A stretch of DNA of 64,000 bases from Candidatus Moranbacteria bacterium GW2011_GWE2_35_2- (GTDB lineage Bacteria > Patescibacteriota > Minisyncoccia > Moranbacterales > UBA9337), in the NCBI GenBank assembly GCA_000990585.1, contig LBQD01000002.1, positions 120,016 through 184,015 on the forward strand. Direction: 5' to 3'. Below are positions 23,638-23,890 of the stretch, piece by piece (the first letter of the stretch is position 1; every line of letters starts with the position of its first letter). The notes beneath the pieces were generated by a model. The model saw only the letters and a list, made by a program, of their open reading frames with translations. It made no database searches and was not told the DNA's origin. Made by a program: the position numbers and the translations under genes.

Positions 23638-23711
23638 AGCGGGGTGGAGCAGTCTGGCAGCTCGCGTGGCTCATAACCATGAGGTCGCAGGTTCAAATCC
23701 TGCCCCCGCAA
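23638..23711 (+). tRNA. tRNA-Met (CAT), initiator-like (1:72 mismatch A-A; similar to E. coli tRNA-fMet)
   Basis: AGCGGGGTGGAGCAG...CTCATAA...GGTTCAAATCCTGCCCCCGCA-A. Confidence 0.85.
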
Positions 23712-23713
23712 CA

Positions 23714-23797
23714 ATAAAAAGCAATGAGAGTAGTGGTTGCAGGTTCTCACCCTCACGGGTGATCATCCGTTAGGATGAAAATCCTGCCCCCGCAACA
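23714..23797 (+). repeat. partial duplicate of the tRNA-fMet 3' half (GTTGCAGGTTC...AAATCCTGCCCCCGCAACA) interrupted by a 32-nt insert of two hairpins
   Basis: 23779-23797 exactly repeats tRNA positions 23694-23712. The insert is TCACCC-tcac-GGGTGA plus TCATCC-gtta-GGATGA. Confidence 0.8.
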
Positions 23798-23890
23798 AAA
23801 GTATAAAACCATAGAGCACATAATAATATATATAGTAGCTGGCATATAATGTATTTGAGCCTTATTTTTTATTCTATGCTATGTTGTTTT

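Follow-up and report, generated by a model that had tools for sequence, protein, structure and literature searches.

In its layout, the closest known analogue of the locus described here is SegB of phage T4, a protein of 221 amino acids (aa). SegB is a free-standing GIY-YIG homing endonuclease encoded in a tRNA gene cluster, and its 27-bp site begins at the T-loop motif GGTTCRANTCC and ends at the tRNA 3' end (PMC2330249). SegB promotes its own copying together with flanking tRNA DNA, as well as the tandem amplification of tRNA-containing units (PMC13096335). The locus that we compare with it is a broken copy of the initiator tRNA (tRNA-fMet) gene, interrupted in its T loop by a pair of small hairpins. 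It lies downstream of the intact gene in a 64,000-nucleotide (nt) stretch of DNA from Candidatus Moranbacteria bacterium GW2011_GWE2_35_2- (Patescibacteriota; assembly GCA_000990585.1, contig LBQD01000002.1, positions 120,016 to 184,015), which we refer to as the window and which has a GC content of 34.6%.

Other described systems resemble parts of this arrangement. Williams reportedly described, in 2002, a class of attachment (att) sites in the T-loop sublocation of tRNA genes. The palindromic repeats known as REPs and REPINs are said to have been treated by Bertels and Rainey in 2011, and the PATEs of IS200/IS605 are palindromic repeats of a MITE-like kind. In E. coli tyrT, repeats of 178 bp each contain the last 19 nt of tRNA-Tyr (rtT). 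Finally, in work of 1994 and 2000, Paquin, Laforest and Lang reportedly found an insertion in the mitochondrial atp6 gene of Allomyces that consists of an endonuclease open reading frame (ORF) and a replacement gene end, as well as double-hairpin elements.

We found that positions 23735-23798 of the window (on the plus strand, as are all features below unless stated otherwise) are a non-functional 3' fragment of the tRNA-fMet gene that comprises about positions 39/45-73 of the tRNA and 3 nt beyond. The best explanation that we can offer, held tentatively and at a little under an even chance, is that the fragment is a relic of a tRNA-targeted duplicative insertion that lacks an ORF and that was hit, later or concurrently, by a mobile micro-palindrome.

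The intact gene, an initiator-type tRNA-Met(CAT) at 23638..23711, was recognized by ARAGORN and by Rfam (RF00005, 58.3 bits). An earlier reading of this DNA from its letters (the sequence-only reading) had called the tRNA initiator-like, and direct reading bears this out: it has an A1·A72 mismatch, in place of the usual C1·A72, and an A11:T24 pair. However, just two G-C pairs lie above the anticodon loop (T29-A41, G30-C40, G31-C39), and CCA is not encoded by any tRNA gene here. The same earlier reading had reported an exact repeat of the tRNA 3' end. This repeat is real, but it spans 20 nt rather than 19, and its first copy lies one base further to the right, at 23695..23714. The repeated sequence, AAATCCTGCCCCCGCAACAA, starts at T-loop position 57 and runs through the discriminator A73 and three trailer bases; the displaced second copy at 23779..23798 matches the first at 20 of 20 bases, with 64 nt between the two. 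Shuffles of the window gave zero matches to the 20-nt repeat, even at <=2 mismatches.

The first copy is followed by a short spacer (23715..23734) that contains ATGAG, a possible remnant of tRNA positions 39-43, and that is orthologous to the start of the spacer in L005, the nearest relative (the numbers L004-L120 denote fetched loci or contigs that we compared with the window). Next comes a mimic of the 5' half of the T arm, GGTTGCAGGTTC (23735..23746), which agrees with tRNA positions 45-56, GGTCGCAGGTTC, at 11 of 12 bases and occurs as the same 12-mer in L005. Two 16-nt hairpins with 6-bp stems then separate the mimic from the second repeat copy. Hairpin 1, TCACCC-TCAC-GGGTGA (TCACCCTCACGGGTGA, 23747..23762), is present in L005 as TCACCTTCACGGGTGA, while hairpin 2, TCATCC-GTTA-GGATGA (TCATCCGTTAGGATGA, 23763..23778), is missing in L005 and in all more distant relatives. 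By direct reading, this 32-nt insert (23747-23778) can be placed only between C56 and A57 of the tRNA (hereafter 56|57), and no target-site duplication accompanies it. The mimic, the hairpins and the position of the insert exactly at the T loop are thus as the sequence-only reading had described them. As DNA, the insert folds into the two 6-bp hairpins with a dG of -10.1 kcal/mol (z = -4.3, a stability reached by 0 of 200 shuffles), and as RNA in its context the fragment folds into a four-way junction with a dG of -30.7 kcal/mol (z = -4.1). Hairpin 2 differs from the reverse complement of hairpin 1 by 3 mismatches (13/16), and the pair is therefore an inverted doublet, not a direct tandem; it could alternatively form one long imperfect hairpin. 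A search of the 64-kb window for other copies of this twin-hairpin module, one of the checks that the sequence-only reading had proposed, gave none at <=3 mismatches. Because it is single-copy in the window, the module is not a common intergenic motif. A terminator reading, which the earlier reading had named as a possible refutation, was rejected for want of a U-tract: after hairpin 2 the sequence reads AAAATCC, and a scan for intrinsic terminators across 23300-24300 found no terminator-like site.

Downstream of tRNA-fMet, ARAGORN made no tRNA call at 23713-23890, and Rfam gave no tRNA or known RNA match to the fragment even at E <= 10; no Rfam family was found in the fragment or in 12 related loci. 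Of a functional tRNA, only positions ~45-73 are present, and the acceptor 5' strand, the D arm and the anticodon arm are missing. Alignment with relatives defines a species-only segment of ~100 nt with approximate limits 23765..23868, which takes in most of hairpin 2, the second repeat copy and ~70 nt of AT-rich sequence. These ~70 nt gave no significant local alignment with the leader, the proximal spacer or the spacers of relatives (p > 0.07). We also considered that the repeat might be a primer-binding site for tRNA-primed reverse transcription, and dropped this idea, as the repeat has the same sense as the tRNA and ends ACAA, not ACCA.

Beyond what the sequence-only reading had noticed, a 5' fragment of the same tRNA lies upstream of the intact gene, at 23555-23581. 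Its left arm, ATGGGGGTGGAG (23555..23566), is identical to tRNA positions 1-12 at 10 of 12 bases, and the corresponding fragments of L005 and L010 are identical to the tRNA at 12 of 12. In place of the D loop there is a hairpin, TCCGCCTATGGCGGA (23567..23581; hairpin A), which is followed by ACAGCT. The leader unit of ~82 nt to which these parts belong (23555-23637) is well conserved in L005, L008 and L010, where the downstream spacers are unalignable. We tried to read the ~55 nt that follow hairpin A as what is left of a decayed tRNA copy; similarity beyond GCAGC(T) was marginal (p = 0.02-0.24), and this reading was not adopted. Hairpin A occurs four times in the window, three of these in tRNA fragments, and its type is also found in dead tRNA fragments of L029, L047 and L085. 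The fourth copy, of the CCGCC-N3-GGCGG type (CCCGCCGTAGGCGGA), lies at 35848-35862 without obvious tRNA context, inside a stretch of ~900 nt without a long ORF (35818-36724) beside a HEPN/restriction cluster; its 15-mer core recurs in the left arm of the L029 cassette described below.

The two remaining copies of hairpin A (1995-2009 and 2048-2062) belong to a tRNA-Arg(GCG) whose 3' end is present in ~2.6 tandem 53-nt units at 1969..2082, each built of AAGGTTC, the hairpin CCCGCCATAGGCGG and GATTCCTGCCAAGCGCA, the last of which corresponds to positions 57-73. The second tRNA 3'-end duplication that the sequence-only reading had placed at tRNA-Arg is therefore present, as two further partial units at 2022-2082, of which the last copy carries a G>A change. 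The 56|57 junction is found in these units as well. With its head-to-tail units, the tRNA-Arg array is close to the tyrT type. The tRNA-fMet element resembles tyrT in that the tRNA 3' end is repeated downstream within the same transcript and unit number varies, but the tyrT repeats are plain tandem repeats without a T-arm mimic or loop insert, and the tRNA-fMet element shares just 20 nt of an 84-nt period and is not built of head-to-tail units.

We asked whether the same architecture is found at other tRNAs and in other genomes. One scan, of one genome per species for the 31-nt 3' half of tRNA-fMet, gave 46 loci, and a second, of metagenomes for GCAGGTTC-N12-42-AAATCCTGCCCCCGCA, gave 16 loci. 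In the 31-nt scan, partial tRNA copies beside tRNA genes turned up often where Patescibacteria have the Met-Met-Asp operon, whereas they were nearly absent from Myxococcota, Actinobacteria and other phyla with the same tRNA end. In the layout that recurs, a T-stem mimic with TTC at its end precedes an insert that bears hairpins, after which the tRNA resumes at position 57 and runs to its 3' end. We found such 56|57 inserts in dead 3' fragments of four tRNAs (fMet, Ile, Met and Arg) in several Patescibacteria. At fMet, the insert is the 20-nt palindrome CCTGCCTGCCGGCAGG(C/T)AGG in L029, L064 and L069, a hairpin of 23 nt in L065 and L078 or of 27 nt in L077, and a 36-nt hairpin within three identical 68-nt units in L071; a further group downstream of rRNA operons has a 23-nt insert. 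A 40-nt twin hairpin occupies the position at the Ile fragment of L029, and the two tRNA-Arg units of the window have a hairpin-bearing insert there. At the elongator tRNA-Met fragment of L053 the insert is TCACCCTAACCAGGTGA followed by TCAACGAGTTGA. This insert, which reads TCACCCTaAC..GGTGATCA, opens with TCACCCTAACCAGGTGATCA where the window has TCACCCTCACGGGTGATCA, a near match to hairpin 1, and is the sole sequence relative that we found for the twin hairpin of the window. Like L005, L039 has a mimic and hairpins and lacks the 3' end. Each of three twin hairpins is an inverted doublet (window 13/16, L039 13/17, L029-Ile 13/20). In every case seen, any 5' fragment precedes the intact gene and any 3' fragment follows it, and both kinds flank the same gene in the window, L029 (fMet and Ile), L039, L047, L053, L054 and L084.

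Three of these loci have further features of their own. In L054 (5322-5556), an intact tRNA-Asp with imperfect terminal inverted repeats sits between its own 35-nt 5' and 35-nt 3' fragments. In L047 (3555-3760), a perfect inverted repeat of 15 bp flanks an elongator tRNA-Met, and the whole sits within an older copy that is split. In L084 (730-809), a tRNA-Thr is followed by tandem 36-nt units in which the hairpin TCCCGCCCTGGCGGGA replaces the whole T arm and precedes the 3' end CATCGGCTCCA.

Across the Patescibacteria loci that we fetched, four hairpin types are almost confined to the loops of dead tRNA fragments. One of them, CCTGCCTGCCGGCAGGCAGG, is a perfect palindrome of 20 nt with clean insertions at three tRNA loop positions: in the D loop of Ile, Asp and Arg-type fragments (L029, L080, L084 and L117, with a variant in L082), in the anticodon loop of fMet at 35|36 (L058 and L079), and in the T loop of fMet at 56|57 (L029-type). 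It is also present in 35 stretches of IMG/VR contigs (L086-L120) whose GC content ranges from 0.38 to 0.68, often with short direct repeats on both sides, and twice (L087 and L110) in the variable loop of a phage tRNA-fMet-like gene. A literature search found no published description of this sequence. That it might be a sequencing adaptor was judged unlikely, given its presence at the same tRNA loop positions in independent studies and the existence of mutated variants. The twin hairpin of the window belongs to this general class of tRNA-loop micro-palindromes. A search for viral copies of the twin-hairpin type returned 6 matches, which we set aside as chance since all lie inside coding sequence with no tRNA context.

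The fragments are linked elsewhere to GIY-YIG genes. In L029 and L058, an ORF of ~80 aa that matches PF01541 (E = 1e-13 and 1e-10) separates a 5' fragment of tRNA-fMet from the intact tRNA. At those fMet loci that were checked, the ORF runs into the tRNA, so that its stop is the TAA of the anticodon loop. All eight loci that we examined share the layout of a tRNA fragment with a loop palindrome, a GIY-YIG ORF and the same tRNA again: four are at fMet (L029, L058, L079 and L085), and the others are at Ile (L080), Arg(GCG) (L082, a related genome, at the same isoacceptor as the array in the window), Asp (L084) and a tRNA without assignment (L117, an IMG/VR contig). These loci are a biased sample, because L029 and L058 came from the tRNA-fMet pattern scan, L117 came from the scan for the 20-nt palindrome, and L079, L080, L082, L084 and L085 are database homologues of the L029/L058 ORF, all of which we looked up. 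The second tRNA copy is intact in seven of the eight; the exception is L117, where the copy is interrupted past about position 34 and receives no ARAGORN call. The left arm of the window (the 5' fragment with hairpin A) can be aligned to the left ends of the cassettes in L029 and L085 over tRNA positions 1-12/16, TCCGCC..GGCGGA and then AGC..AGTT, and in L029 both arms surround tRNA-fMet with the same geometry as in the window.

These cassettes resemble SegB in that a GIY-YIG gene is found among tRNA genes here too, in the Candidate Phyla Radiation (CPR). The duplication boundary and the insert in the window lie at GGTTC|AAATCC, which corresponds to the same segment from the T loop to the 3' end that SegB recognizes; this is a match of position only. 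Moreover, the amplified units of SegB loci recall the arrays in L007, L071, L053 and the tRNA-Arg of the window. The differences are also clear. SegB is a phage protein with a DNA-binding domain, whereas the CPR ORFs are cellular, encode catalytic domains of ~75 aa and read into the tRNA; their activity is putative and predicted from the genes. In addition, SegB loci have not been described with palindrome-interrupted tRNA fragments, and the window has no nuclease gene.

Orthologous loci in relatives were found through homologues of a 175-aa ORF beside the operon (ORF175), whose contigs we fetched. The species itself is present in samples from the Rifle aquifer and elsewhere, with the exact ORF175 in 32 index blocks. 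The gene order ligA-gatC-gatA-ORF175-[tRNA-fMet, tRNA-Met, tRNA-Asp]-DUF5698-RRM-pnp is kept down to about 72% ORF175 identity. L005 (91% identity) has the 5' fragment, at 12/12, with its hairpin, but on the downstream side it has only the T-arm mimic and hairpin 1, without hairpin 2 and without the 3'-end repeat. The upstream unit is present and the 3' fragment absent in L008 and L007 (~73%) and in L010 (~72%), while L011 (57%) has neither fragment. There are at least five upstream units in L007, in an array with an N gap, versus one in L008, although the ORF175 protein is identical in both. Beyond about 57% identity (L013 and L015), the tRNA neighbourhood is lost and gives no information on the element. 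This patchy presence indicates that the element is lineage-restricted and unstable. The spacers of L005, L008, L010 and L011 measure 69-80 nt, versus 178 nt in the window, where the spacer between tRNA-fMet and the elongator tRNA-Met holds the dead 3' fragment. The spacer sequence shared with L005 directly follows the true tRNA, that is, the proximal copy and not the distal one, and what follows the distal copy does not significantly match anything in relatives.

We propose that the 3' fragment and the upstream 5' fragment are together what remains of a duplicative insertion that targeted the tRNA gene, an event that would leave an intact tRNA flanked by pieces of a broken copy. A nuclease or a recombination event would strike the tRNA gene in or near its T loop. 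Repair or insertion would then bring in a replacement segment, whereby the tRNA stays intact and the displaced segment remains beside it. A palindrome would subsequently fill the loop of the redundant copy and destroy the GGTTC|AAATCC motif there, and the relic would decay at rates that differ by lineage. The fragments could have been created either by a tRNA-directed break and its repair or by a cassette that carries a replacement tRNA segment. A nuclease may have made the break, the palindromes may be mobile, and the window copy may descend from an ORF-bearing cassette. The insertion reported from Allomyces would be similar in that a selfish endonuclease ORF brings a replacement and leaves a dead fragment, with two-hairpin mobile elements in the same genome, but it is mitochondrial, has a protein-coding target and involves other element sequences.

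A number of observations weigh against the duplicative-insertion relic. No GIY-YIG gene or remnant was found in the window by tblastn (E <= 1), Pfam scans or a motif scan. The ~55 nt from hairpin A to the tRNA have no residual similarity to the interiors of the GIY-YIG ORFs of four cassettes, and we accordingly rejected the reading of the leader in this lineage as an internally deleted GIY-YIG ORF. As the leader lacks ORF similarity, it is the arm architecture by itself that links the window to ORF-bearing cassettes. The CPR GIY-YIG proteins, at ~75 aa, consist of the catalytic domain only, without a SegB-like DNA-binding domain, and their cleavage of tRNA genes is putative, by analogy with SegB. 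The intact tRNA would keep any recognition site in its T loop, and how a cassette avoids cutting itself is unexplained. The ~100-nt difference from L005 could be either an insertion here or a deletion there; the spacer lengths of the four relatives favour an insertion here, and this is hard to square with one old nested event. The 11-mer GGTTGCAGGTT of the T-arm mimic is also found in the spacer hairpin of L011, and that part of the mimic may therefore be old spacer sequence. Lastly, the clade of L065, L071 and L077 shows 100% conservation of the tRNA-like parts of the fragment next to diverging flanks, which could mean function rather than junk.

Alternatively, the fragments could have arisen passively. 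Slippage or unequal recombination would make partial tRNA copies with no tRNA-directed nuclease, and REP/REPIN-like or MITE-like palindromes would settle in them, since dead copies tolerate insertions. We consider this unlikely, though by no means negligible. Tandem arrays are what slippage or unequal crossover yields, and a passive origin therefore explains the identical units of L071 (three) and of tRNA-Arg in the window (2.6), as well as the units of L007 (at least five, versus one in L008). The lack of a nuclease gene in the window and the single hairpin A copy outside obvious tRNA context, at 35848, point the same way. The twin hairpins also resemble REPINs in forming inverted doublets that can fold either into two hairpins or into a single long one, and, like REP, REPIN and MITE sequences, they are short GC-rich palindromes in an AT-rich genome that insert without target duplication, with the same sequences at several sites and genomes. 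However, passive duplication predicts neither the constant polarity of 5' fragments upstream and 3' fragments downstream, nor the 56|57 junction shared by four tRNAs, nor the position of all eight GIY-YIG ORFs exactly between fragment and tRNA. Unlike REPs, which have many dispersed copies, the twin hairpin is single-copy in 64 kb; in the Patescibacteria loci that we fetched, the units are much shorter, at 15-20 nt, and are almost confined to loop positions of dead tRNA fragments; and no PF01797-type, RAYT, Y1 or other transposase is found among the 58 ORFs of the window. A functional RNA is a less probable source of the same anatomy. Here, the T stem, the hairpins and the 3' acceptor strand would form a structured module of the tRNA precursor that pairs with the 5' fragment and guides or blocks RNase P, RNase Z or 3' exonucleases, or serves as a non-canonical terminator or a stable small RNA. 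Such a module would account for the strong four-way fold, for the position of the element inside the operon transcript, and for the T stems and 3' strands that are identical across species in L065, L071 and L077, where the hairpin sequences differ and yet remain hairpins. Furthermore, the hairpins of L005 and L039 are followed by T-rich sequence, and a fold of leader, tRNA and spacer pairs UGGGGGUGGA of the 5' fragment with UCCUGCCCCCG of the 3' fragment and thereby encloses the true tRNA. This pairing is trivial, however, because both partners are of tRNA origin. The module is also not conserved in the lineage, with neither hairpin 2 nor the 3' strand in L005 and nothing of it in the relatives that come next; other examples do not keep the outer, acceptor-like stem, no Rfam family matches, and there is neither a U-tract after the hairpins nor a hit in the terminator scan.

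The sequence-only reading had offered a different origin, namely that the duplication may mark the attachment site of a lost integrative element or a small tRNA-targeting insertion element. In the former case the T loop of tRNA-fMet would be the attB of a tyrosine integrase and the 20-nt repeats the attL and attR cores of an island since lost, with a matching attP that would read GGTTGCAGGTTC...AAATCCTGCCCCCGCAACA. We regard this as quite improbable. What speaks for it is that the block of identity begins in the T loop and passes the tRNA 3' end, with the T-stem mimic to the left of the distal copy, and that plain partial tandem duplications of the same tRNA end occur in other phyla (L067, L070, L072 and L076). 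In addition, tRNA gene fragments from element integration are well documented, in the form of a non-canonical partial tRNA gene beside an intact one (PMC9897764). Yet the repeats are just 64 nt apart, and the 32-nt palindromic doublet interrupts the putative core exactly at the crossover region. The checks that the sequence-only reading had suggested also came out against an integrated island: gene order is conserved with no island at this tRNA in any relative, and no integrase was found among the 58 ORFs by Pfam or in a motif scan of all ORFs of the window. Moreover, the orthologous flank follows the proximal copy, which is the wrong way round for attL and attR, no IMG/VR contig contains the tRNA 3' half with or without the insert (0 matches), and the 5' fragment upstream, which 3'-end integration would not make, is left unexplained. 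The small insertion element was the better half of that guess, in view of the hairpin inserts at 56|57 in four tRNAs and the near-identical start of the L053 insert. An assembly or sequencing artefact, or a chance resemblance, is effectively refuted. The contig of L004, assembled from short reads, breaks inside this tRNA, so the region is hard to assemble, but three independent assemblies (GCA_000992055.1, GCA_003508935.1 and JGI 3300025154) agree on it at every base, and the duplicate is thus not absent from other data, as the sequence-only reading had allowed it might be. The 20/20 repeat has zero expectation in shuffles, a partial version exists in another species (L005), and the same architecture is seen in many unrelated datasets.

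The tRNA operon is preceded by a promoter, TTGACA-16-TATACT (23490..23517), that matches the consensus at 11 of 12 positions and is kept in L005, L008 and L010; because it precedes all of them, the tRNA genes and fragments would share one primary transcript. Downstream of the fragment, an elongator-type tRNA-Met(CAT) (23891-23964) and a tRNA-Asp (23977-24050) were found by both ARAGORN and Rfam. On the minus strand, a 78-aa ORF at 24012-24248, which is a gene in one public annotation, overlaps the tRNA-Asp and the terminator and is almost certainly spurious. Elsewhere in the window there is a large type IV pilus cluster (6600-18964) that encodes PilM, PilN, PilO, T2SSE, T2SSF, a prepilin peptidase and several pilins with the N-methyl motif. 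A defence-type cluster on the minus strand (36725-39672 and 32791-33402) includes a C5 cytosine methylase and a HaeIII-type restriction endonuclease (E about 1e-97 each), an Apea-like HEPN protein (a weak match) and, further down, an Eco57I-like N6 methylase fragment. A tmRNA at 57864-58262 (Rfam, 127 bits) has a long and unusual predicted tag, ANFISKVKATFARNFAFASAIA, and adjoins smpB at 58365-58811.

Taken more broadly, the fragments and cassettes may belong to an undescribed family of selfish cassettes that invade the tRNA genes of Patescibacteria, a proposal that we regard as possible but doubtful in its entirety. In such a family, a minimal GIY-YIG ORF of ~75 aa may be expressed from the promoter of the tRNA itself and may travel with a complete or partial replacement of the tRNA; the D, anticodon or T loops of the flanking fragments may be plugged by mobile micro-palindromes, of which CCTGCCTGCCGGCAGGCAGG would be one; the plugged fragments may act as homology arms that are immune to cleavage; and the pseudo-half in the window may be the right arm of a member that lacks the ORF and is possibly mobilized in trans. 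Of the ingredients, tRNA gene fragments that result from element integration (PMC9897764) and T-loop-directed GIY-YIG homing, in the form of SegB, are already known. Our literature search found no description of palindrome-plugged tRNA fragments at fixed loop positions, nor of mini GIY-YIG ORFs wedged between a tRNA fragment and a tRNA in Patescibacteria; the sole CPR paper found concerns insertions in rRNA genes (PMC11270868).

If the fragments were instead functional RNA modules, they would constitute a new kind of processing signal in tRNA precursors. If the selfish reading is true, it would account for the stray tRNA fragments that confuse tRNA annotation in metagenome-assembled genomes, and it would provide a testable candidate substrate for many orphan mini GIY-YIG proteins. 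The micro-palindromes would then add a class of mobile palindromes that are extremely small and clearly prefer certain structures. More generally, the tRNA operons of very small genomes would be an arena for selfish DNA that targets the most conserved DNA motifs of any genome, the D and T loops of tRNAs, and that survives by supplying a spare copy, which would extend the SegB principle of T-even phages to the cellular genomes of the Candidate Phyla Radiation.

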